64,000 nt of DNA from an uncultured Gammaproteobacteria bacterium (GCA_964634875.1 CAZWKA010000003.1:16591-80590), one strand, 5' to 3'; positions 1,292 through 39,153 are shown, numbered from the stretch's first letter. Numbers and translations: made by a program. Notes: generated by a model from the letters alone, not told the origin.

Positions 1292-2194
1292 ATGATTTGG
1301 ATCATCCTTATTGGTATTATTGTCCTCGGCCTTTTGTGTATTGGCTATATTATCTTTCGCCATTTTCCTCAATTATCCAACCTTGACGCGACCCGCCTGC
1401 CAGAAGAGCAGACAGCGCGCAAGAAAAAAGAAATTATCGACAAACGAGTTGATGAGCAGGCTCGCCATTTCCAGAAGCGGTTTGGTAAGCGCCTTGAGCC
1501 TTTGGCATTGCCGTGGAAAAAAATTCAACTTCGTTTTAGGATCTATGTGGGTAAGATCGAGCGTTTATGGCACCATGAAGAAGTTGTTAAAAAATCAACT
1601 AATCCTGGAGATGCATTAACTGATACTGATAAGGAGCAAAAAATTTTCCAGCATATCCAGGAAGGACAAAATAGCCTGAACCACGAGCATTTTGAGCAGG
1701 CCGAGGAGGCTTTTATCGCTGCAATCAAGATCGACCAGAATTCTCGAGAAGGGTATCGTGGCTTGGCTGATACCTATTTAGCCAAAGGAAATCTGCCTGA
1801 AGCCAAGGAAACCTACCAATTCCTGCTCCAGATGGAGCCGGATAACGACAATGTCCTCGTAAAGCTTGGTGAAATAGCAGAGAGCCAAGGGAATACAGAA
1901 GAGGCTATTGATTGTTACCAGCAGGCTGTAGTAATTAATGACCTTTTATCTCCGCGGTTTTACCATCTGGCCGAGCTCCTCCTCAAAGTCAAGCAGCCCG
2001 ACATTGCTCTTGAAGCTATCCAATCTGCAGTTGAGCTTGAGCCGAAGAGCCCAAAATATCTTGACTTATTAATTGAAGTTGCTATACTACTTTCCGATAA
2101 GAAACTCGCTTTGGAAGTGTACAACGAGCTCCGGCTCGTTAACCCCGAAAACCAAAAATTGGAGAGTTTCAAAAGCCGAATTAGTGAATTGTAG
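1292..2194 (+). CDS. TPR-repeat protein with N-terminal transmembrane helix
   Basis: N-terminal hydrophobic helix followed by repeated 34-residue Ala/Tyr/Leu-patterned units typical of TPR. Confidence 0.6.
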   Translation: MIWIILIGIIVLGLLCIGYIIFRHFPQLSNLDATRLPEEQTARKKKEIIDKRVDEQARHFQKRFGKRLEPLALPWKKIQLRFRIYVGKIERLWHHEEVVKKSTNPGDALTDTDKEQKIFQHIQEGQNSLNHEHFEQAEEAFIAAIKIDQNSREGYRGLADTYLAKGNLPEAKETYQFLLQMEPDNDNVLVKLGEIAESQGNTEEAIDCYQQAVVINDLLSPRFYHLAELLLKVKQPDIALEAIQSAVELEPKSPKYLDLLIEVAILLSDKKLALEVYNELRLVNPENQKLESFKSRISEL

Positions 2195-2614: not shown

Positions 2615-5572
2615 ATGATCTTACATCAAAATAAAAAGGAGGGGTCATTTATTCGTTTTCACAAAAGACATTTTCTTGTTGCGTTTATAGTTATGGTAGT
2701 GAGCACAGTATTTGTTACTGGGCTCGTTTTATTTTTTGTTAATTTATATCCACCTGGTTTGTCGCGCGCGGCTACTGTCGTTTGGACAGGTGAGACAGGG
2801 GATGGTTTGTGGCAAACGGCAGGCAACTGGAGCGGATCAGCTGTCCCGACTGCTTCTGATGATGTGACTATAGCTTCAACCAGTACTTTAATTACGGTGA
2901 CACTTTCATCGGGGCAAACGGCTAATTTTAGCACCCTAACTATTGGCGGGGAAACGTTATTGACTAATTTTATCCTCGAAGGGAATATTGGAACCGGTGG
3001 AAGTATTACAATTGATAACTCTGGTGTATTGGAGCAAAAGAATGCTGTTACTCAAACAATTAGTGGTACGCTGACTATAAAGGGCGGGGCAACTGGCGGT
3101 AAGTTAACACATACAGGAAATGCTTCTTCACAGAGTTATATTTTGAATTTTGTAGCTCAAGCTATTGATGTGCAAGCGGGTGGAGTCATTGATATTACGG
3201 GAAAAGGTTATGGAGATGCCAATTCTGGCCCCGGTCCTGGTATCGGTCAATCCAATGAGGGTGTTATTGAGTCAGGTGGTGGGGCGCACGGCGGTAATGG
3301 TGGAACGTATAATTTTTCACAAGGCGGCATTGGTTATTGTTTGGTAACCGATATTACAACCATGGGTTCGCCAGGTGGGCAGGCTGGTGGAGAGACTTTT
3401 AACGACCCAAGGCATGGTGCGGGAGGTGGGCTTGCTCTGCTGCGCTCGATCGCGACTACAACATTAAATGGTTCAATTATTGCTTCAGGTGCCGCAGGTA
3501 CTACTCTTGCAGACAACACGTATAGCGGAGGTGGGGGTGGAGGTGGTTTGCGAATTACTGCTGGCGGTGCGATTGCAGGTACTCCAACCGCAGTAACAGC
3601 TAACGGGGGCGCTGGTTTTGGTGAAGGTTCGGCCGCTGGCGGAGGTGGTTGTATTCAGTTGTCCTACCATACAACAAACTCAATTACCGCTCTTGGAGAC
3701 ATGGTAACGGTTGATGGCGGTGCTCAGTTTGTAGGTGCAAATCCGACTGCTGGTTTATTTTACGCTGCCCAAACTAATGCAGTCCCAACTACTACTGTTA
3801 CCAGCGTTGTTCAATCAACGACTTCCACAGTTACTTTTGTCGCCAGTGTCACTGATGTTGATTTAGACGTAACAAGCCTTGTGGTAGAACATTCGCTCGA
3901 CGGCGCAAACTGGTCGTCTTCTACGCTGGGTAGTGTTACCCCAAGCCAGGGGTCGGTCAGCACTTCAACCGGCCGTATTTCTGGTATTGCCACCGACACT
4001 GCTACTACGACACTAACAGCAGTTTGGAATATCGGGATCGACGCGCCGACAACAACAACCTCGACTGCCTACATGCGTTTTGTTCCAACCGACGGCGCAC
4101 TTACCGGCGCTGTGGCCACTTCGACAGTTTTTTCTATTGTAACGGTTCCCCCGAGTGATTTAAATATTACGAGCGTGACAGACCATGAAGCGAATTTTAC
4201 CTGGTCAACCCAGGATGTTTTTACAAGTTATGCGCTGCAAGATGTTGCTAATGCCGTTTCATCCGGATGGGTTACCGGGGATAGTCATCAGATTACTGAT
4301 TTAACCTGTGGAGTTGCATATACTTTTGCTATTAAAGGTAAAAGCAGTGCGGATGTTGAAACTGGTCTTTCCGCTAGTATTGCGACCACAACACTTAATT
4401 GTGGTCCAGCCTTTTCGGCGAGCGGGGGTGGTGGGGGTGGTGGAGCAAGTGATTCAGGAAGCTCTGCTCCAGCGCCGAGCCCAAGCACAGACGCGCCACA
4501 GCAACTGGTAACTGTACCTTTATTTTTACAACCACCGGTAACTCCTGAAGTGCTATTAAATGTACCTCTTACGCCCGTGCCGCAGGACAGGCTTTTGCAA
4601 CCGCTTACGGTTTTGCCGCCACCAACGACACCGTTGGTTCCAGACACCGTAGTATTGCCGCCACCGTTGCCTCCTCAGGAAGTGCAGTTGATTTTAAACC
4701 AGCAAGAACAAATAGCGCAAATCATTACCCAATCCGCCCAGGTCATTGCTCCTGTACTACAAGTAACCACGCCGGTAACGGTCGGTGCAGCGACGCACAG
4801 TGTAACGGTTTCCGCTGCTTCCGCATCGAGTATTACATTTGTTCTTCGTTCTAATCCAATTACCCTTACTCTACAGGCCGGTGAGCAGCGTGAGGCTGAT
4901 ACAGACGGGGATAGTGTGACAGATGTCTTGGTGTCATATAAAGGCTTGTTGGAAGGAAAACCGCTTTTGGCTTTAGCGCCGCTGATTAATCAGGATGAAG
5001 CTGTGGGTCCGTTTACCATCAATACCGGTGCCCTGCAGACAAAATCAACCGATGTGTTGCTTACCTTTGGTGTGAAGGATATTCGTTCGATAGAAATTTC
5101 TAATACACCAGATTTTGTTTCGAGCGTGCACTTTGTTGCTGCTTCTTCAACGCGCTGGAGGCTTCCTACTGAGGCTGGTGTCGCTACGGTGTATGCCCGT
5201 ATTTATAAAAATAATGATACGGTCGTTGGGGTGAGTGATAGTATCTTTGTCCGACCAGAAGCTTTGCCTAATTGGTCGGCTGTGATCCCGAAACCCGTTG
5301 CAACCTCCACCGTACCGGTACAAAAAGCGAAGCCAGTACCTGTGGTGTTTAAAACTCCCCTGAGAGCTGGTAGTGTGGGGAATGAAGTTCGCATGCTTCA
5401 AGTAATTCTTAAAGCGCAGGGGTTATTTCCCGTGCAGCAAGCCGTAACCGGTTACTTTGGTCAGTTTACGTACCAAGGGGTTGTCGCTCTGCAAAAGAAA
5501 AATTCCCTTACCCCTATCGGTCAGGTTGGGCCGCAGACGAGGGCACTTCTGAATGTTTTATCTGCTGAGTAA
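2615..5572 (+). CDS. large cell-surface protein with N-terminal TM anchor, Gly-rich beta-helix-like repeats, FN3-like segments, Pro-rich linker and C-terminal peptidoglycan-binding domain
   Basis: 985 aa. N-terminal hydrophobic helix, GGxGGxG runs and a PxxP-rich region. The C-terminal GNEVRMLQVILKAQG...GYFGQFTYQGVVALQK fits the PG_binding_1 pattern. Confidence 0.6.
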   Translation: MILHQNKKEGSFIRFHKRHFLVAFIVMVVSTVFVTGLVLFFVNLYPPGLSRAATVVWTGETGDGLWQTAGNWSGSAVPTASDDVTIASTSTLITVTLSSGQTANFSTLTIGGETLLTNFILEGNIGTGGSITIDNSGVLEQKNAVTQTISGTLTIKGGATGGKLTHTGNASSQSYILNFVAQAIDVQAGGVIDITGKGYGDANSGPGPGIGQSNEGVIESGGGAHGGNGGTYNFSQGGIGYCLVTDITTMGSPGGQAGGETFNDPRHGAGGGLALLRSIATTTLNGSIIASGAAGTTLADNTYSGGGGGGGLRITAGGAIAGTPTAVTANGGAGFGEGSAAGGGGCIQLSYHTTNSITALGDMVTVDGGAQFVGANPTAGLFYAAQTNAVPTTTVTSVVQSTTSTVTFVASVTDVDLDVTSLVVEHSLDGANWSSSTLGSVTPSQGSVSTSTGRISGIATDTATTTLTAVWNIGIDAPTTTTSTAYMRFVPTDGALTGAVATSTVFSIVTVPPSDLNITSVTDHEANFTWSTQDVFTSYALQDVANAVSSGWVTGDSHQITDLTCGVAYTFAIKGKSSADVETGLSASIATTTLNCGPAFSASGGGGGGGASDSGSSAPAPSPSTDAPQQLVTVPLFLQPPVTPEVLLNVPLTPVPQDRLLQPLTVLPPPTTPLVPDTVVLPPPLPPQEVQLILNQQEQIAQIITQSAQVIAPVLQVTTPVTVGAATHSVTVSAASASSITFVLRSNPITLTLQAGEQREADTDGDSVTDVLVSYKGLLEGKPLLALAPLINQDEAVGPFTINTGALQTKSTDVLLTFGVKDIRSIEISNTPDFVSSVHFVAASSTRWRLPTEAGVATVYARIYKNNDTVVGVSDSIFVRPEALPNWSAVIPKPVATSTVPVQKAKPVPVVFKTPLRAGSVGNEVRMLQVILKAQGLFPVQQAVTGYFGQFTYQGVVALQKKNSLTPIGQVGPQTRALLNVLSAE

Positions 5573-9515: not shown

Positions 9516-10664
9516 TCATTTCCTCCTCGTAAACCACCAGCTCGCCAACAGCGTCGTTAACGGCACAGCCAGCACCAGCACGCAACTGCCCACCAGCGTA
9601 CGCACTAATTCTTCGGCAATAAAATTACTATTAAGCATGATCCACAACTGGGTGGATTTTTGCATGCTGTAGAGTAATAAGAGTGGGAACGACACGCCGA
9701 CGTAGGCGAGGACGAGCGTGTTCACGAGCGAGGCAATATGTTCGCGGCCAACCGAGAGGCCGCTTTTGTATAATTGAGCCAGGGAAACGGTGGGGTTGGC
9801 AGTATGGATTTCTTCGATTACAGCGGCTTGGGCTGTGGTGATGTCGTCAAGGACACCCAGGACGCCAATGAGAATGCCGCCGAGGAGTACGCCGCGCAGA
9901 TCTATCGTGCCGGCACCAAGTTGCAGGTAAAAGGCTTCTTCGGTACCGGTGCCTGCCAGTTTGGCAAAACGAACAAAGACAATGTCGATAATAATAGCGG
10001 CGCCAAGGGTGAGGAGGGTGCTGATAAGGGCGATGGTAGTGCGGCGATTAAAGCCGTGCGAGAGGTAGAGCGAACAAAAACAAATCAGGAGGGCGGCAAT
10101 GATGCAAGCGACCAACGGGTCGTGCCCGGCAGCGATGCGAGGGATTAGGAAGCGGAAAATGACCAGGGTTGTAAAGACTAGGCCGAGGATGGAGGTGAGA
10201 CCGCGCTTGCGGCCAAAGAATATGGCGAGCGCAAAAAAGACGGCGACAAGTATGAGGACGTTGGGCAGGCGGTACTTATCGGTAATGTAATAAAAGTCTT
10301 CTTTAATGCCGCCGGCGGGCTTGGTAATTATTACCACGTCACCCGCTTGTACTTTTTGGTATTCCTGGATGGCAAAGAGGCCACCGTGGTCGATAGTAAT
10401 TTTTTTACCTTTTTCATCGCCGCTCACAATCTCAAGTTCCAGTTTTTGGTATTCCTGCGGCGTACCATCCGCGTCTTTGGTGCCGCTCTCCACGACCTGC
10501 AGAACTTTGGCGCGGGCAAAGATGTCCGGTGCATCATTTACAATGGGCGCGTCTAAGTCGAGCGGCGCTTCTTCGAGTGTCTGCATCTGTGCCCGGTGGG
10601 GGAAAAATGCGGACAAAAAGAGAATGATACAAAAGAGGCTGCGGGTAAAGAAAGTGTGGTGCAT
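9516..10664 (-). CDS. YibE/F-family integral membrane protein
   Basis: 382 aa. N-terminal extracytoplasmic domain followed by about 8 TM helices, the typical YibE/F layout. Confidence 0.7.
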   Translation of the reverse strand: MHHTFFTRSLFCIILFLSAFFPHRAQMQTLEEAPLDLDAPIVNDAPDIFARAKVLQVVESGTKDADGTPQEYQKLELEIVSGDEKGKKITIDHGGLFAIQEYQKVQAGDVVIITKPAGGIKEDFYYITDKYRLPNVLILVAVFFALAIFFGRKRGLTSILGLVFTTLVIFRFLIPRIAAGHDPLVACIIAALLICFCSLYLSHGFNRRTTIALISTLLTLGAAIIIDIVFVRFAKLAGTGTEEAFYLQLGAGTIDLRGVLLGGILIGVLGVLDDITTAQAAVIEEIHTANPTVSLAQLYKSGLSVGREHIASLVNTLVLAYVGVSFPLLLLYSMQKSTQLWIMLNSNFIAEELVRTLVGSCVLVLAVPLTTLLASWWFTRRK

Positions 10665-10739
10665 ATGCTTAGCAGTATACCATGAAGCAGACTGTCCAAA
10701 AACTAGGCGACCGCCAGGGAGATGGCGGTCGAGAGGGGG

Positions 10740-11006
10740 CTAGAAACCGTACGATTGTCGGGTGCGGTTGAAGTAGGGTTTGGGAAAGCTAAAGCTGTAG
10801 TAGAATGAATCATCGGGGTAGACGACGCGGTACCAGTTTTGGGTAGGGCGAGTAGGTGGGTGCCAGGGGTCTGCCGGTTTACTGTAATAGTAAAACTGGG
10901 TCGATCCGTTGATGAGGACAGCTTGGGCTGGGGCAGCCAATGCGCCCGAAATGCCGAGAAATAGCGCGAAGCCAAGGGCGGTGGCTATAAGGGTATTTTT
11001 TGTCAT
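10740..11006 (-). CDS. small secreted Tyr-rich protein
   Basis: ATG at 11006. Signal peptide MTKNTLIATALGFALFLGISGALAAPAQA. About 88 aa. Confidence 0.4.
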   Translation of the reverse strand: MTKNTLIATALGFALFLGISGALAAPAQAVLINGSTQFYYYSKPADPWHPPTRPTQNWYRVVYPDDSFYYSFSFPKPYFNRTRQSYGF

Positions 11007-11137
11007 AGAGAGTAAATCAGGTTTGTGTGTGAGTATAGCACACCAGGCTGAAGGTACAAACACTACAACCGCCAGGTGTAGTGGCGGTTGCGATGTCTCT
11101 ATGGCCTTCGGATTAGCGAAGGATATGTGCAGTATAT

Positions 11138-11150
11138 GCAACTAAGTTGC
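11138..11150. promoter_or_regulatory. palindrome GCAACTAAGTTGC (copy 1 of an operator-like repeat)
   Basis: Part of the ~27-bp motif GCAACTAAGTTGCGTTTGTCAAATAGG. Sits between two minus-strand small-protein genes. Confidence 0.5.
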
Positions 11151-11179
11151 GTTTGTCAAATAGGAGTTGTGGAAAACTG

Positions 11180-11545
11180 TTAATAACTAGAGTACCTGCC
11201 GTAGTATACGACGGGTGTAGGGCGGTAGCTGTGGTACGTAGGGTAATTGCGCGTTTGCCACGAGCGTAGCGGAGCATATAAACGGGTTGGTGTGGTACGC
11301 AAATAGGCGGGGGCAGGCGGGGGCACGTAACCGCGCTTGGTGACAGGCTGGTTGGGTATCGTGGTGGGGGAGGCATGGTCGGCAGCATCATGTCCATCTG
11401 CTGCATGTTCTGTTTCTTCGTTGTCGTCGTGGCTGTGCCCCGGTTCAACTATGGTCCAGGCCTGGGCTGATTCAGTTGGTCTGAGAATGGCGAGGCTAAG
11501 CGCCAGAAAGAAAAAAATTCCTATCCACGCGTGTTTGTTTTTCAT
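11180..11545 (-). CDS. small secreted His/Asp-rich protein (possible metal-binding)
   Basis: ATG at 11545. Signal peptide MKNKHAWIGIFFFLALSLAIL. Acidic His-rich segment HSHDDNEETEHAADGHDAADH. Confidence 0.4.
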   Translation of the reverse strand: MKNKHAWIGIFFFLALSLAILRPTESAQAWTIVEPGHSHDDNEETEHAADGHDAADHASPTTIPNQPVTKRGYVPPPAPAYLRTTPTRLYAPLRSWQTRNYPTYHSYRPTPVVYYGRYSSY

Positions 11546-11637
11546 AGGTAGTAGATTACATATATACAGTACTCTTGTAAGCCTCATGGTTTGGGGCGCA
11601 CAAGAGTGCTCGAGGCCGACGATCCGACCTCGGTTTG

Positions 11638-12309
11638 TTATTCGTCTGCTGGTTCGTCGATCAGTGTGCTGGGTGCTCGGGGAACCAAATCTAGCTGAAG
11701 GTACTGTGGCGACGCGGGTTGTTTTGGTTCTGTTTCCCGCTTGAGAGCGAATTTCCACCCCAGCATGAGCGGTACCAAGTGCCATTCCCAAGGGTGCCCG
11801 TTCGCCAAGTTGAGCGGTGCCAGCATGGCTGCTTCGCTGCCGATGACAAAACCTTTGTACCGGAAACTGATGCCGCCGAGCAGCGGGCCGAGTTTGACTT
11901 CGGTCTGGCTCTGGTAGGGCTTTTCAATTTCTAGCACGATTCCAGGCAGGTGCAGTTCGAGCGACCAATGCTCGCTAAGGTGGATATCAAGCCCGCCGGT
12001 AAGGTGAATGTCGCCACCCGCCCGGTCGCCACCAATTGCCGCGTGCAGGCCGGCAACAATGCCAAAGTCGACGCTGCCCGCTTCGGCGAAAGGGAATTCA
12101 AACTCGAAACAGAGCGGGGTCATGAGTTGGAGGATAAATCCGCTTCCACCCTTGAGGCCAGTTGTGGCCGTGCGGGAACTATCGTATTTGGTGGGGGAGG
12201 CTACCGCTTGGCCGGAAAATATTGGGCCACCGCACCACAAGGCTGAGGGGGATTCGGCCCTCGCAACAATGCTCCAGGCAAGGAGCGTGACGATAACGAG
12301 GTAGCGCAC
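11638..12309 (-). CDS. secreted beta-strand-rich protein (porin/OmpW-like pattern)
   Basis: GTG start at 12309 with AAGGAGA 5 nt upstream. Signal peptide. Alternating hydrophobic pattern and a C-terminal aromatic residue. Confidence 0.4.
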   Translation of the reverse strand: MRYLVIVTLLAWSIVARAESPSALWCGGPIFSGQAVASPTKYDSSRTATTGLKGGSGFILQLMTPLCFEFEFPFAEAGSVDFGIVAGLHAAIGGDRAGGDIHLTGGLDIHLSEHWSLELHLPGIVLEIEKPYQSQTEVKLGPLLGGISFRYKGFVIGSEAAMLAPLNLANGHPWEWHLVPLMLGWKFALKRETEPKQPASPQYLQLDLVPRAPSTLIDEPADE

Positions 12310-12324
12310 AGGCTTCTCCTTAAA

Positions 12325-12337
12325 GCAACTTAGTTGC
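12325..12337. promoter_or_regulatory. palindrome GCAACTTAGTTGC (copy 2)
   Basis: Lies 16 bp upstream of the GTG start of the 11638..12309 gene on its promoter side. Extended motif GCAACTTAGTTGCACTTGTACCACAGG. Confidence 0.5.
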
Positions 12338-12368
12338 ACTTGTACCACAGGAATACCTAGTTGTCAAT

Positions 12369-12381
12369 GCAACAAAGTTGC
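12369..12381. promoter_or_regulatory. palindrome GCAACAAAGTTGC (copy 3)
   Basis: Upstream of the Fur-family regulator gene. Extended motif GCAACAAAGTTGCGTTTATCCACAGG. Confidence 0.5.
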
Positions 12382-12450
12382 GTTTATCCACAGGTGCTAC
12401 TTGAAAAAACTCAGTATTTTTGCTAGACTACCAGCATTAAAGCATTTTTT

Positions 12451-12891
12451 ATGACTACTTCGCACCAAGTTATCGCTGACCTTAAGGATCGGGGAGAGCG
12501 CATTACCGAAATCCGGCGCATCTTGGTAGACATTCTCGCCAAAAGTCACAAGCCGTTATCGGTGCAAGATATTTTGGCGAAATTAAAAATTCGCTGTATT
12601 GAGGCGAATAAAACCACCGTCTATCGTCAATTGGAAACGCTCCATAAGTATAATTTTATTTACGAAGTGCGTTTGGCGGATCGTTCGGTTTTGTACGAGC
12701 TTGCCAGTGAAGACGATCACCACCATCATTTAGTGTGTCTCGGTTGCGGTACGATAGAAGATGTGTCGTTTAAGGACGACGTGGAACGCCAGGAAAAAAA
12801 TATTTTAAAAATAAAGAAATTTAAAGTTGTGCGCCACTCGCTCGAATTTTTCGGCTGGTGCGCTAAATGTCAGAAAAAATATGGCAAATAA
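12451..12891 (+). CDS. Fur-family metalloregulator (Zur/Fur-like)
   Basis: 146 aa. HHHHLVCLGCG ... CAKC metal-binding motifs and a winged-helix N-terminus. Confidence 0.8.
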   Translation: MTTSHQVIADLKDRGERITEIRRILVDILAKSHKPLSVQDILAKLKIRCIEANKTTVYRQLETLHKYNFIYEVRLADRSVLYELASEDDHHHHLVCLGCGTIEDVSFKDDVERQEKNILKIKKFKVVRHSLEFFGWCAKCQKKYGK

Positions 12892-13810
12892 TTTTTGGAA
12901 ACAAGTATCGCGTGCTCTCGGTATCGTTGTTGTTCTCGCAGCAGTAGCTTTGGTTTTTTATTTTTTGGTTACGCGAGAAAATAAAATTACCCCACCCGAT
13001 GATCGACTTACAGTTAGCACTTCCTTTTATCCGTTGACGTTTTTAGTTGAGGGTATTGCGGGCGATCTTGCAATAGTGAACACCATTACCCCGGCCGGGG
13101 CAGAACCGCATGAGTACGAACCAACGACGCAGGATCTGGTAGCGATCGAAAAAAGCAAGCTACTTTTTTTGAACGGCGCTGGTTTTGAATCGTGGGCCGA
13201 GGGGTATGTTTCTGCTGGCGCCACTATTGTTCCGGTCGCTGACACGCTGGTAACGCAGAATTTTGTTGCGGGAGAAAGTGTGGCCCGCGATCCGCATGTC
13301 TGGCTTGACCCCACGCTCGCCAAAGCCTCGGCTCAGATTGTGCTTGATGCCTTGGTTGCAGCTGACCCTGGTCATGAACAAGAATACAAGGTAAACGCCG
13401 AAACCTTTTTAAAACAATTTGATGATCTCGACGCCGCCTTTCAGGCAGGCCTTGCTACATGCGCACGCCGTGATATTGTTACGGGGCATGCTGCGTTTGG
13501 GTATTTGGCTGCCCGGTACACATTAACCCAGGTACCGATTTCGGGTTTGTCGCCGGACGAAGAGCCTTCACCGCGGCGGATGGCCGAGGTGGCTGAGTTT
13601 GTTAAAAATAGTGGGGTAGAGTATATTTTCTTTGAAAGCCTGGTGAACCCAGAGCTTGCAGTAACAATTGCCAATGAAGTTGGTGTCAAAACGCTAGTAC
13701 TTAATCCGCTTGAAGGGTTGACGCCAGACGAAGTATCTCAAGGTAAAAATTATTTTACGGAAATGCGCCAAAACCTTGCTCACCTTAGAACCGCTCTCCA
13801 ATGTCAGTAG
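12881..13810 (+). CDS. metal (Zn/Mn) ABC transporter substrate-binding protein, TroA/ZnuA family
   Basis: Overlaps the regulator stop by 11 nt. N-terminal anchor. Cluster A-1 binding-protein motifs EPHEYEPT and DPHVWLDP. Confidence 0.75.
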   Translation: MANNFWKQVSRALGIVVVLAAVALVFYFLVTRENKITPPDDRLTVSTSFYPLTFLVEGIAGDLAIVNTITPAGAEPHEYEPTTQDLVAIEKSKLLFLNGAGFESWAEGYVSAGATIVPVADTLVTQNFVAGESVARDPHVWLDPTLAKASAQIVLDALVAADPGHEQEYKVNAETFLKQFDDLDAAFQAGLATCARRDIVTGHAAFGYLAARYTLTQVPISGLSPDEEPSPRRMAEVAEFVKNSGVEYIFFESLVNPELAVTIANEVGVKTLVLNPLEGLTPDEVSQGKNYFTEMRQNLAHLRTALQCQ

Positions 13811-14565
13811 ACCATAACAAAAATATACTCGAAGTTAAAAACGTTTCGTTTGCCTATAGTGCAAATGCACCGGTTTTGACCGCTATTTCTCTCAATATTC
13901 ATTCGGGGGATTATTTAGGTGTTATTGGTCCGAACGGTGGCGGCAAGACCACGCTTCTCAAAATTATGCTCGGACTCCTTCAGCCAACGAGTGGGAGTAT
14001 TTCTTTGTTCGGCCAAGACATCCGCGATTTTAAAGATTGGCCAGCGATTGGGTATGTGCCTCAGAAGGCGGTTAATTTTGACCTCAAGTTTCCGGCTACT
14101 GTCAAAGAAGTAGTAGCAATGGGGCGGTTTGGCAAACGGGGGTTGTTACGTCTTCCGACCAAAGAAGACCGGAACCAGGTGGAAGAAGCGTTGCGCCAGG
14201 TTGATATGATTGAATACCGAGACCGTTTGATTGGTGATTTGTCGGCTGGGCAGCAGCAGCGCGTGTTTATTGCCCGCGCACTGGCCACGGAACCGAAAAT
14301 TATTTTTTTGGATGAACCAACGGTTGGAGTTGATGTTGCAACCCAGGAACAATTTTATCGTTTGCTGGAAAAACTAAACCAAACACTCGGTCTTACCCTC
14401 GTGTTGGTGTCGCACGATATTGATGTTATTGCGAACGAAGCAACGGAACTGGCGTGTATTAACCAGACTTTGGTGTATCACGGCAGCCCGAAAGAATTTG
14501 TAAAAGGGGAGTACTTGCAACAATTATATGGTAAGAACCTTAAGTTTATTTTGCATGATCACTAA
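13801..14565 (+). CDS. metal ABC transporter ATP-binding protein
   Basis: Walker A GPNGGGKTT, signature LSAGQQQR, Walker B IIFLDEP. Confidence 0.85.
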   Translation: MSVDHNKNILEVKNVSFAYSANAPVLTAISLNIHSGDYLGVIGPNGGGKTTLLKIMLGLLQPTSGSISLFGQDIRDFKDWPAIGYVPQKAVNFDLKFPATVKEVVAMGRFGKRGLLRLPTKEDRNQVEEALRQVDMIEYRDRLIGDLSAGQQQRVFIARALATEPKIIFLDEPTVGVDVATQEQFYRLLEKLNQTLGLTLVLVSHDIDVIANEATELACINQTLVYHGSPKEFVKGEYLQQLYGKNLKFILHDH

Positions 14566-14568
14566 AGG

Positions 14569-15384
14569 TTGAAAAGTAAAAGTATGTTTTTAGAAATTTT
14601 TCAATATTCATTTATCCAGCGTGGCCTTGAGGCTGGGATTTTGATTGCGATTATTGCCCCGCTTATTGGTATTTTTTTGGTACTCCGCCGGTATTCTTTG
14701 ATTGCGGATACGCTGTCACACGTTTCGCTCGCCGGTGTGGCGATTGGTCTTCTGGCAGGTATTAACCCCATCATTACTGCGCTTGCTACTTCGGGCGCGG
14801 CTGCCCTCGCAATTGAAAAATTGCGTAGCTCCAAAAAAGTATACGGCGAAACTGCCTTGTCAATTTTTCTTTCAGGGGGCCTCGCGCTCGCGGTGGTGCT
14901 TATTAGTCTGGCGCACGGCTTCAATGTTAACTTGTTTAGTTACTTGTTTGGGAGCATTGTTACGGTAAAGCAAAGTGATGTTATGTTGATCGCTGTTTTG
15001 GGCTTGGTCATCATTGTCCTGTTATTTTCATTTTATAAAGAGCTTGTCTATATTTCATTTGACGAAGAGGCGGCCAAAGTCAGCGGGATACCGGTAAAGG
15101 CAATCAACTTTATTTTTATCTTGCTGGCGGCTATGACGGTCGCGCTTGCGATTCCAATTGTTGGTATCCTTTTGATTTCGGCCTTGATTGTGATCCCGGT
15201 AGTTACGGCGCTACAGCTTAAGAAAAGTTTTTCTACTACCTTGTGGTATGCCGAGGGCTTTTCAATTTTTTCGGTGGTGAGTGGAATCCTGCTCTCGTAT
15301 TATTTTGACCTCTCGCCGGGTGGTACGATCGTGCTTATTACTTTGGCTTTGTTTAGCCTAATTTTAGTCTTTAAACGGGCTTAA
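14569..15384 (+). CDS. metal ABC transporter permease (ZnuB-like)
   Basis: 271 aa with 8-9 TM helices. Operon position. Confidence 0.8.
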   Translation: MKSKSMFLEIFQYSFIQRGLEAGILIAIIAPLIGIFLVLRRYSLIADTLSHVSLAGVAIGLLAGINPIITALATSGAAALAIEKLRSSKKVYGETALSIFLSGGLALAVVLISLAHGFNVNLFSYLFGSIVTVKQSDVMLIAVLGLVIIVLLFSFYKELVYISFDEEAAKVSGIPVKAINFIFILLAAMTVALAIPIVGILLISALIVIPVVTALQLKKSFSTTLWYAEGFSIFSVVSGILLSYYFDLSPGGTIVLITLALFSLILVFKRA

Positions 15385-15451: not shown

Positions 15452-15607
15452 ATGTCCCAAGATAATCTGGTTAAAATGGAATGTTCGGTCTGCAAGCGAA
15501 CTAACTATTTCACCAAAAAAAATAAAAAAATCCTCAAAAACCGTCTCGTCATGAGCAAGTTCTGCAAACATGACAAGAAACATGTTGAACACAAAGAAAC
15601 CAAATAA
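15452..15607 (+). CDS. rpmG: 50S ribosomal protein L33
   Basis: 51 aa MSQDNLVKMECSVCKRTNYFTKKNKKILKNRLVMSKFCKHDKKHVEHKETK. Absent from the ORF track only because it is under 60 aa. Confidence 0.8.
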   Translation: MSQDNLVKMECSVCKRTNYFTKKNKKILKNRLVMSKFCKHDKKHVEHKETK

Positions 15608-37686: not shown

Positions 37687-39153
37687 ATGGAAACTTTTTT
37701 GACACTACCTTTTGGCATATCGTTCAGCCTCTCGTTTTGGCAGAACCTTTTTTTGTTACCTCCATACCAGCTCATTATCATGATTTTTGCGATCGGTGGC
37801 TGGGCAGTCTTGGCGCTTATTTTTTTCTTTATGGGCTCTGAGCTCTGGAAGGACTACCGCCAGGGTAAGTACACTAAAAATTGGCAGTGGGTTGTTTTAG
37901 CAGTAGATGTTCCGGCGCTTTTTATCCAAACGCCAAAAGCAGTTGAGCAGATTTTCGTACATCTGAGTGGGGCTAAAACAACCCCAAATGTGGGCGAAAA
38001 GTATTGGCAAGGTAAAAAGCAGAAGAGTTTTAGCTTTGAAATTGTCAGTATTGAAGGGTATATCCAGTTTTTAGTCCGTTCTGAAGTTGAATACCGTGAT
38101 TTAGTAGAGGCGGCTATTTATGCCCAGTATACTGAAGCCGAGATTACGGAGGTTGAAGATTACGTTGATAATATTCCTACGCACTATCCCCACCCAAATT
38201 ATGATATGTTTGGCATCGAATTTGCGCTCGATAAACCAAGTCCATTTCCCATTCGTACATACCCTAGTTTTGAGTATAACCTGAGTAAAGATGCGGTATT
38301 TAGTGACCCCATGGCGGCAATTCTGGAAAATTTTAGCCGTATTGGGCGAGGAGAAAATTTTTGGATGCAAATTATTTTAGAACCAATTAGTAGTAAGTGG
38401 AAAGAAGAGGGGATCGAACTTGTTAAATCAATTATAGCGAACAAGGGGTATTCGGGTGGACACGGAGGCCATGGTGGCGGTGGTAGCATGTTAACGGGTG
38501 CTTTGTCGGCAGTCATGGGGGTTTTGCACGTCATCATTAAAGAAATTGGCAGTGCACTTCTTGGTGGGGGCGAAGAGGAACATGGTGGAGGGCATGAGGA
38601 CGCACACGAAGAAGGCAAACTTAGTGACCTGTCACCTGGTAATAAGACGGTCATTGAGGCGGTTGAACAGAAAATTTCTAAAATTGGTTTTAAAACTAAG
38701 TTGCGTATTCTGTATGCGGCGCGTAAAGAAGTGTTTAACCCAAGCAAATGTCTTGACGGTTTTGTGGGGGCGATGAGTCAATTTAACATCCAAGACAGCA
38801 ATTCCCTGGTGCCGCACCATGATACTTCCGCGCAGTATTTATTTGCTAAATCCCGAACCGACCATCACAAACACCATTTTACTAGCGCTTTTAAGAAACG
38901 TAAGTTGAAGGCGCTTGGGGATCCTTATATCCTCAATATTGAAGAGCTAGCGACAATTTGGCATTTCCCGCTGCCGTTTGTTAAAACGCCACTTATTCAG
39001 AAAGCTGGTGCCAAGCGTGCCGAACCTCCGATGGGTCTACCCGTCGAAGCCAGCGAAAGCCCGCTCAAGCGCCGTACGCCGGTCCCTCAGGCAGCGCCGC
39101 CGCAATCAACCGTGCCGGTACAGGAAGCACCCGAAGATTTGCCCTATGGTTAA
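37687..39153 (+). CDS. membrane protein homologous to the N-terminal (non-ATPase) half of the VirB4-like ATPase at 48943..51498, with Gly/His-rich insert
   Basis: N-terminal TM helices. FEIVSIEGYIQFLVRSEVEYRDLVEAAIYAQYTEAEITEVEDY parallels FEIVVKENKISFYVAVPDKIRDLVEQQIHAQYPHAEITEESDY in the 851-aa protein. EELATIWHFPLPFVKTP parallels EEMASFWHLPVPHTETP. No P-loop. Confidence 0.5.
   Translation: METFLTLPFGISFSLSFWQNLFLLPPYQLIIMIFAIGGWAVLALIFFFMGSELWKDYRQGKYTKNWQWVVLAVDVPALFIQTPKAVEQIFVHLSGAKTTPNVGEKYWQGKKQKSFSFEIVSIEGYIQFLVRSEVEYRDLVEAAIYAQYTEAEITEVEDYVDNIPTHYPHPNYDMFGIEFALDKPSPFPIRTYPSFEYNLSKDAVFSDPMAAILENFSRIGRGENFWMQIILEPISSKWKEEGIELVKSIIANKGYSGGHGGHGGGGSMLTGALSAVMGVLHVIIKEIGSALLGGGEEEHGGGHEDAHEEGKLSDLSPGNKTVIEAVEQKISKIGFKTKLRILYAARKEVFNPSKCLDGFVGAMSQFNIQDSNSLVPHHDTSAQYLFAKSRTDHHKHHFTSAFKKRKLKALGDPYILNIEELATIWHFPLPFVKTPLIQKAGAKRAEPPMGLPVEASESPLKRRTPVPQAAPPQSTVPVQEAPEDLPYG

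Follow-up and report, generated by a model that had tools for sequence, protein, structure and literature searches.

In Bacillus subtilis, dimers of Fur-family regulators bind 7-1-7 boxes and repress transcription in the metal-bound state; the Fur, PerR, and Zur boxes of this species are TGATAAT-N-ATTATCA, TTATAAT-N-ATTATAA, and TCGTAAT-N-ATTACGA, respectively. The half-sites TGTTATA and TGAAAAT, from enterobacterial and actinobacterial examples, are also classical A/T-rich types, and small RNAs are represented among the Fur-repressed targets by RyhB, FsrA, and PrrF. Here, we analyze a palindrome of the same layout that occurs three times around a Fur-family regulator gene in a 64,000-nucleotide stretch of DNA catalogued as an uncultured Gammaproteobacteria bacterium (GCA_964634875.1, CAZWKA010000003.1:16591–80590). 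The whole stretch is referred to as the window, and positions are counted from its first nucleotide.

The closest description of such a box is a computational prediction by Rodionov et al. (2004; Genome Biol 5:R90, PMC545781), in which ATGCAACnnnGTTGCAT was proposed to be the Zur box of two Desulfovibrio genomes, where it precedes znuABC-zur (ZUR_D; D. vulgaris and D. desulfuricans); the Gram-positive Zur consensus in the same work is TAAATCGTAATNATTACGATTTA. This box is absent from a Zur review in which palindromes of the 7-1-7, 9-1-9, and 23-bp kinds are listed. In Streptomyces coelicolor, a Zur box upstream of the -35 of zitB activates this exporter gene at high zinc (PMC5472717, PMC9371925).

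The window sites, aTGCAACtaaGTTGCg, aaGCAACttaGTTGCa, and aTGCAACaaaGTTGCg, fit the ZUR_D consensus, and they share the ZUR_D placement upstream of an operon that contains znuABC and a Fur-family gene. On the basis of sequence comparison, we predict with good confidence that the Fur-family regulator encoded at 12451–12891, most likely a zinc-sensing repressor (Zur), uses all three palindromes as operators.

A 7-1-7 palindrome occurs three times between genes

The original prediction, an earlier note on this DNA, described three copies of a motif of about 27 bp, built on GCAAC-N3-GTTGC, at 11138, 12325, and 12369. The quoted sequences were located exactly at these positions, and GCAAC-N3-GTTGC has three exact matches in the 64 kb compared with 0.09 expected, a number reached by none of 100 shuffled sequences. 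Permitting one mismatch added a single match in the window, which is chance level. All three copies are intergenic in the open reading frame (ORF) map of the window. The length was overestimated: the conserved unit is a 7-1-7 palindrome of 15–19 bp, aaTGCAACTnAGTTGCAtt, and the extensions are separate promoter elements. The three sites match the 15-bp core TGCAACT-N-AGTTGCA, a 7 + 1 + 7 inverted repeat, at 13, 13, and 12 of 14 positions, and are listed here with their scores from the external matrix described below.

11137–11151, no strand: box 1, TGCAACTAAGTTGCG; 13/14 to the consensus, 28.8 bits; occupies the 17-nt spacer of the minus-strand promoter P1
12324–12338, no strand: box 2, AGCAACTTAGTTGCA; 25.9 bits; adjoins the -10 and spans the start site of the promoter of a gene for a beta-rich secreted protein
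12368–12382, no strand: box 3, TGCAACAAAGTTGCG; 27.2 bits; abuts the -35 of the beta-rich promoter

A motif profile was compiled with symmetrized counts from 28 sites, those of the window together with sites from 12 other genomes; the search itself imposed the core. Outside this imposed core, position ±1 is T/A in 86% and ±7 is T/A in 68% of the sites, and ±8 and ±9 are A/T in 71–79%. These preferences extend the unit to aaTGCAACT-n-AGTTGCAtt, with the 7-1-7 layout typical of Fur-family boxes. A 19-bp matrix was then trained on 25 sites from 12 other genomes, with the window left out, and the three window sites were the sole high scorers (25.9–28.8 bits). The next-best match (11.6 bits) lies within a coding ORF at 38689, and the remainder score 3.3 bits or less.

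The specificity of the external matrix rules out chance and the possibility, raised in the original prediction, that the motif is a dispersed repeat, of the repetitive extragenic palindromic (REP) or miniature inverted-repeat transposable element (MITE) kind: the only copies in the 64 kb are the three intergenic ones, and 454 kb of unrelated loci contain one chance-level match. It is hardly credible that the copies are such repeats, or an RNA hairpin in a transcript (5-bp stem, 3-nt loop), rather than a DNA operator. The short inverted repeat is perfect in each copy, and the flanks of boxes 2 and 3 resemble each other like a local duplication, but a hairpin of this size is weak, no mobile-element ends were detected at the copies by find-and-align, no copy lies in a gene, and most boxes are in promoter spacers and so precede the predicted start site.

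The 3′ tails of the quoted 27-mers are alike within the window (8/14 and 10/14 identities), and in relatives the tail is conserved at copy 3 alone (TTTATCCACA). From our reading of the sequence, the tail of copy 1 on the minus strand is the -35 hexamer of P1, and that of copy 2 is the complement of the extended -10 TGG-TACAAG. The tail of copy 3 is a separate element that is invariant in relatives and carries a conserved TTATCCACA. Use of TTTATCCACA as a -10, with TTGTCA as its -35, was rejected because the hexamer match is poor and there is no -35 at this place in L002 or L090 (L numbers denote loci fetched from other genomes).

The box accompanies a distinct recognition helix

The regulator that the three boxes surround has the features of a Fur-family protein:

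12451–12891, plus strand: Fur-family regulator (probable Zur), 146 aa; PF01475 E = 1.8e-23; recognition helix NKTTVYRQL, HHHH, and Cys4 site

Loci from other genomes were fetched through the regulator protein and not through the motif. Conservation in related genomes, which the original prediction had proposed as a check, was observed: the box keeps its places in relatives with regulators 46–75% identical to that of the window, namely L082 and L084 (73–75%), L088, L090, L097, L103, L111, and L112 (56–62%), and L002 (46%). The box also precedes remoter homologues (38–44% identical) in L003, L004, L006, L007, and L009, from metagenome-assembled genomes (MAGs) labelled Gammaproteobacteria, Bdellovibrionales (Bdellovibrionota), Saccharibacteria, Deltaproteobacteria, and Patescibacteria. 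In these remoter loci, it lies in the TTGACA-17-TAnnnT spacer of the regulator promoter, 25–45 bp before the start codon. Boxes inside such spacers are also present in the window, L082, and L097, and boxes just past the -10 in L002, L090, L103, L111, and L112.

The regulators of all these loci have in common the recognition helix NKTT(V/I)YR(Q/E)(L/I). An alignment of 37 Patescibacteria proteins shows little or no variation in NKTTVYRQ, and C96, C99, C137, and C140 together with HHHH are invariant, as is appropriate for a structural Cys4 site. Among the matches listed, the exact core was present at 15 of 19 distinct NKTT(V/I)YR(Q/E) loci and at 1 of 79 Fur-family loci with other helices (Fisher p = 3e-13, which overstates independence because the loci are phylogenetically related). 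The 79 control loci, 454 kb in all, are mostly distant Fur homologues among the matches listed for the pattern HHHHLVCxxC. This association makes it very unlikely that some other, unlinked transcription factor binds the palindrome, with the Fur-family gene nearby by coincidence. Other factors probably do act at these promoters, given the conserved second element TTATCCACA, but whether a box is present follows the recognition helix of the neighboring regulator in a set of 98 loci spanning several phyla, and in L003, L004, L006, L007, and L009, the box is in the regulator's own promoter.

The regulator homologues stem from Magasanikbacteria, Parcubacteria, and other Patescibacteria MAGs, and the window is therefore read as DNA of a candidate phyla radiation (CPR) bacterium. 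An identical 4.7-kb contig is present in SRR12762304. A metagenome scan with a single regulator protein returned six distant loci with no boxes, and tblastn of plasmids retrieved ordinary Fur alone (31–37% identity).

Other inverted repeats were seen near Fur-family genes. In L084, GTAACGT-CTAGGT-ACGTTAC (3978–3999) covers the -10/start region of the fur promoter, and a similar repeat, CCGT-CTAAGT-ACGG (about 3890–3905), is upstream of fur in L085, a locus without the Zur box. A 7-1-7 palindrome, TGCAAAT-N-ATTTGCA, is found near other-helix Fur-family genes of Verrucomicrobia and Bacillota MAGs (L027 762, L029 2209, and L033 394) and may be the box of another branch of the family.

The boxes overlap predicted promoters

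As the original prediction had it, copy 2 is upstream of the gene for the beta-rich secreted protein and copy 3 is upstream of the regulator gene. Four minus-strand genes are relevant to the promoters below:

11638–12309, minus strand: 223-aa beta-rich secreted protein; GTG start
11180–11545, minus strand: 121-aa secreted His-rich protein, gene 2 of the divergent operon; weak homologues in L082 (4e-8) and L088 (1e-4)
10740–11006, minus strand: 88-aa secreted Tyr/Pro-rich protein; homologue (3e-16) within the fur-ZIP-89aa operon of L097
9516–10664, minus strand: YibE/F-family membrane protein (PF07907); terminator at 10731–10708 upstream; own extended -10 TGGTATACT (10682–10674), nearly leaderless

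Promoters were assigned as consensus matches:

11131–11159, minus strand: promoter P1; TTGACA (11159–11154), 17 nt, TATACT (11136–11131); 11/12 to consensus
12339–12367, minus strand: promoter of the beta-rich operon; TTGACA (12367–12362), 17 nt, TGG-TACAAG (12347–12339); a sequence reading
12401–12429, plus strand: fur-znu promoter; TTGAAA, 17 nt, TGC-TAGACT; conserved in L082, L084, and L088

The layout of P1 recurs in L088 and in L082, where TTGACA-17-TATAAT is perfect and the box matches at 14/14. The beta-rich operon promoter was not reported by a simple promoter scan of the window; its TTGTCAA is invariant in four genomes, and the block order Shine-Dalgarno, box 2, variable segment, TTGTCAA, box 3 is kept in four genomes. 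Box 2 spans the region from the -10 to the start site and is followed by the Shine-Dalgarno sequence AAGGAG and the GTG start codon. Boxes 2 and 3, which bracket the promoter of the beta-rich/His-rich operon, are thus predicted to give strong double occlusion. Cooperative looping between the two boxes was rejected because their centre spacing (43, 44, 47, and 50 bp) shows no helical phasing.

Each of boxes 1–3 overlaps or abuts a predicted promoter, and relatives have a box in the fur/znu promoter; for the fur promoter of the window, the box is upstream only, at approximately -68 to -54 relative to the predicted fur start site. A second box directly after the -10 is present in L002, L090, L103, and L112, with none there in the window, L082, L084, or L088. 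Control of znuABC may be looser in the window genome, given the additional box over the znu start site in relatives.

Neighboring genes point to zinc

The regulator gene is followed on the plus strand by znuA, znuC, znuB, rpmG (L33), and a DUF1189 gene, in that order:

12881–13810, plus strand: znuA, component of a zinc-type ATP-binding cassette (ABC) importer
13801–14565, plus strand: znuC, zinc-type ABC importer component
14569–15384, plus strand: znuB, zinc-type ABC importer component

The Zur model NF008646 gives the regulator 42.5 bits against a cut-off of 167, and the Fur (77 bits) and PerR (58 bits) scores are also far under their cut-offs. Because no equivalog cut-off is reached, the metal is read from neighboring genes only. 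The closest solved Fur-family structures are only about 25–30% alike.

The closest solved relatives of ZnuA are the zinc-binding proteins AdcA, YcdH, AdcAII, and Lmb (about 2e-51 to 2e-40), compared with about 1e-27 or weaker for the manganese-binding MntC and PsaA. ZnuA retains H/H/H/E residues that align with the zinc-ligand motifs EPHEYEP, DPHVWL, GHAAF, and NPLE. The regulator gene of L097 is the first of an operon that also encodes a ZIP-family permease. By homology and context, the boxed regulators are therefore placed in control of zinc acquisition genes, as for Zur. In L004, the Bdellovibrionales-labelled MAG, two boxes (1107–1160) lie between a gene for a His-rich membrane protein and one for a CooC/MinD-like P-loop ATPase, an arrangement that suggests a metallochaperone in the same regulon. 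Taken together, the affinities of ZnuA, the ZIP operon of L097, the targets in L004, and the Desulfovibrio assignment make zinc the best inference for the sensed metal.

A regulator that senses manganese, iron, nickel, or peroxide instead of zinc is improbable as the protein that binds these boxes, even though the NCBIfam scores for Fur and PerR exceed the Zur score (all far under cut-offs), the ZnuA-type binding protein also matches MntC models, and the 7-1-7 layout is common to several Fur-family types. The binding protein is nearest to the zinc-specific AdcA, YcdH, and Lmb and has their H/H/H/E ligands, the L097 operon encodes a ZIP permease, and the Desulfovibrio box was assigned to znuABC. 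No iron, heme, catalase, or peroxidase genes were seen adjoining boxes in any locus examined.

Proposed mechanism

When zinc is sufficient, a metal-loaded Zur dimer would occupy each 7-1-7 box TGCAACT-N-AGTTGCA and exclude RNA polymerase from the promoter. Box 1, within the spacer of P1, would control a short RNA or leader with two hairpins, upstream of the genes for the 88-aa protein and YibE/F. Box 3, touching the -35, and box 2, over the start site, would together repress the beta-rich/His-rich operon. Box 3 might additionally dampen fur-znuABC by interfering with whatever uses the TTATCCACA element. The predicted targets of this Zur-type regulon would then be secreted proteins, a short structured RNA or leader, and fur-znuABC.

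Besides the relatedness of the loci, several observations weigh against this scheme. The NKTT-helix loci L005, L085, L100, and L106 have no box within 3–5 kb. The regulator is below every curated Zur, Fur, and PerR equivalog cut-off. The promoters are consensus matches, and the -10 of the beta-rich promoter is weak. Box 3 of the window, about 54–68 bp upstream of the predicted fur start site, is in an unusual position for a repressor. Autoregulation in the window genome is consequently the weakest link, and the least secure step, of the proposal. The metal-responsive, autoregulated regulon of the original prediction thus stands in part: the conserved positions, promoter overlap, and co-occurrence with the helix argue for a zinc-type operator, but box 3 is not over the fur promoter, and autoregulation did not find the same support.

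A second element upstream of the -35

The conserved TTATCCACA next to box 3 has a near-copy at P1:

12384–12392, plus strand: TTATCCACA element; identical to the DnaA-box consensus; 8 nt upstream of the fur promoter -35 and directly downstream of box 3
11168–11176, minus strand: TTTTCCACA; TTATCCACA with one mismatch; 8 nt upstream of the P1 -35
Beyond the window: TTATCCACA at L002 778, L082 3935, L084 3933, L088 2919, L090 1538, L097 4939 (minus strand), L103 1723, and L112 4918

Nine genomes share the order box-TTATCCACA-N8-TTG. The distance from TTATCCACA to the -35 is 8 nt, or 7–9 nt at P1-type promoters, the counterparts of which are gTATCCACA-N7 in L082 and TTATCCACA-N9 in L088. Nine of the 17 exact copies of TTATCCACA in 641 kb of fetched DNA adjoin a box, and the element was absent from the non-CPR loci examined. 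There is a single copy per promoter, two further exact copies in the window fall within coding sequence, and the GC skew of the window has no turn. Candidates for a protein that binds TTATCCACA are DnaA, the RNA polymerase alpha subunit, or another protein. We found nothing in the literature on TTATCCACA with Zur. Two near-identical phage contigs with a box and TTATCCACA lack related genes, and this match was taken as chance.

A predicted two-hairpin RNA downstream of P1

The original prediction placed copy 1 upstream of the 88-aa gene. The position is correct, but a conserved putative two-hairpin leader and a likely second promoter intervene:

11055–11124, minus strand: putative short structured RNA or leader from P1; about 70 nt, two hairpins
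11122–11105, minus strand: hairpin 1 of the leader
11103–11096, minus strand: linker CAUAGAGA between the hairpins
11091–11065, minus strand: hairpin 2, terminator-like; core GACCGCC...GGCGGTC
11032–11040, minus strand: extended -10 TGCTATACT, likely a second promoter before the 88-aa gene; the 9-mer also precedes YibE/F in L082 and L097

The leader folds with z = -5 to -6, and its structure is kept with a different sequence in L082 (about 2655–2724, minus strand) and L088 (about 1410–1490, minus strand); hairpin 1 of L088 has the same shape and another sequence. The U-tract of hairpin 2 is good in L082 and L088 and poor in the window. A search of 10500–12600 against Rfam gave no credible family for the leader. 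Base pairing is predicted between the linker CAUAGAGA and UCUCUAUG (11011–11004), a segment that spans the 88-aa start codon.

Hairpin 2 is repeated downstream of the 88-aa gene, here with a U-tract, and TGGTATACT and YibE/F come next; the module of terminator, TGCTATACT, and YibE/F is also present in L082 and L097. The 88-aa gene is therefore flanked by copies of the hairpin (C)GACCGCC-loop-GGCGGT(CG) (11065–11091 and 10708–10731, minus strand), each with an extended -10 TG(C/G)TATACT after it. Recombination between the two copies would yield the arrangement of L082 and L088, which lack the 88-aa gene and in which the product of P1 seems to be the short RNA alone.

We tentatively propose that the zinc-regulon promoters of this Patescibacteria clade might be composite, with a Zur box and, 7–9 nt before the -35, TTATCCACA for a second factor, and that P1 with box 1 might drive not a protein gene directly but the RNA of about 70 nt, either as a Zur-repressed small RNA or as an attenuating leader in which CAUAGAGA pairs with the start-codon region of the 88-aa gene. 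The P1 product could equally be a shared terminator of the upstream operon, or a leader rather than a small RNA.

Other genes around the boxes

The beta-rich protein is an orphan in all searches made: HMMER recovered only the protein itself among 1.84 billion representatives, there was no Pfam or NCBIfam match, BLASTP showed no significant similarity to the secreted proteins encoded at the syntenic position in relatives, and single-sequence AlphaFold gave an unusable model with a predicted local distance difference test (pLDDT) score of 37. The syntenic secreted proteins of relatives form a family of their own, with a His-rich N terminus and the motifs NKDDGNxxWGxH, LLGYHGERR, and YWEWE. The G+C content of the minus-strand block is 53%, above that of its surroundings.

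The 88-aa protein is plausibly in the regulon, since its homologue is encoded inside the fur-ZIP operon of L097. YibE/F genes adjoin a Fur-family regulator of this type in the window, L006, L008, L011, L012, L082, L088, L090, L097, L106, and L111, and this recurrent adjacency hints at a role in metal transport.

Downstream of znuB is the ribosomal protein gene:

15452–15607, plus strand: L33 (rpmG), downstream of znuB in the window and in L082; own promoter TTGATT ... TGG-TAGAAT, no box

A reading of L33 as a box-controlled paralogue was rejected, because its gene lacks a box and is served by a separate promoter. The zinc ribbon of L33 follows the pattern CxxC ... CxH, with the second CxxC incomplete.

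Discussion

Transcriptional regulation is almost undocumented in Patescibacteria, bacteria of the CPR that cannot be cultured on their own, and a set of operator, regulator, and promoters provides a usable handle. It becomes possible to predict zinc regulons in thousands of MAGs, and the secreted beta-rich, His-rich, and 88-aa proteins, and possibly YibE/F, are flagged as candidate zinc-starvation proteins. We found nothing in the literature on Zur in the CPR, nor on YibE/F and zinc. The pairing of the NKTTVYRQ helix with a G+C-cored 7-1-7 box is also useful for the recognition code of the Fur family. To our knowledge, the box has never been tested experimentally. No concept is changed by these data: the layout is that of a textbook Zur box, and the box was predicted 20 years ago.

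The window boxes have in common with the B. subtilis Fur, PerR, and Zur boxes a 15-bp 7-1-7 inverted repeat that overlaps promoters. They differ in the half-site, as TGCAACT has a G+C-rich core compared with the A/T-rich B. subtilis sequences, and the regulator differs in its helix, NKTTVYRQ compared with S(V/L)ATVY(R/N). The original prediction was right that the motif is unlike the classical boxes, since TGCAACT does not resemble the A/T-rich TCGTAAT, TGTTATA, and TGAAAAT types.

As at S. coelicolor zitB, box 3 lies upstream of a -35, here that of fur-znu; unlike zitB, the downstream genes encode an importer and not an exporter. Activation of an importer by zinc-loaded Zur would be counter-productive, so interference with the upstream element is more likely. 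At P1-type promoters (in the window, L082, and L088), a box in a strong promoter precedes a predicted hairpin-rich, terminator-ended RNA of about 70 nt, an arrangement like those of RyhB, FsrA, and PrrF.

The closest counterpart is ZUR_D, the core of which, ATGCAAC-N3-GTTGCAT, is also that of the window boxes. A homologue search seeded with the Deltaproteobacteria-labelled regulator returned no named Desulfovibrio protein, and the plasmid collection contained no Desulfovibrio ZUR_D sequence. Unlike the ZUR_D description, the central triplet of window-type boxes is mostly T-N-A (86%) with A/T-rich flanks, a locus carries several boxes, the host lineages are the Patescibacteria and other uncultivated bacteria, and the targets extend to secreted proteins and a structured RNA. 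The suggestion that the motif might define the box of this lineage is not supported, because the 2004 Desulfovibrio prediction (PMC545781) precedes it and the box occurs in MAGs of several phyla in the usual 7-1-7 layout. The box itself is not new; what is new is a multi-copy box with further targets in Patescibacteria and other uncultivated lineages, tied to the NKTT helix.

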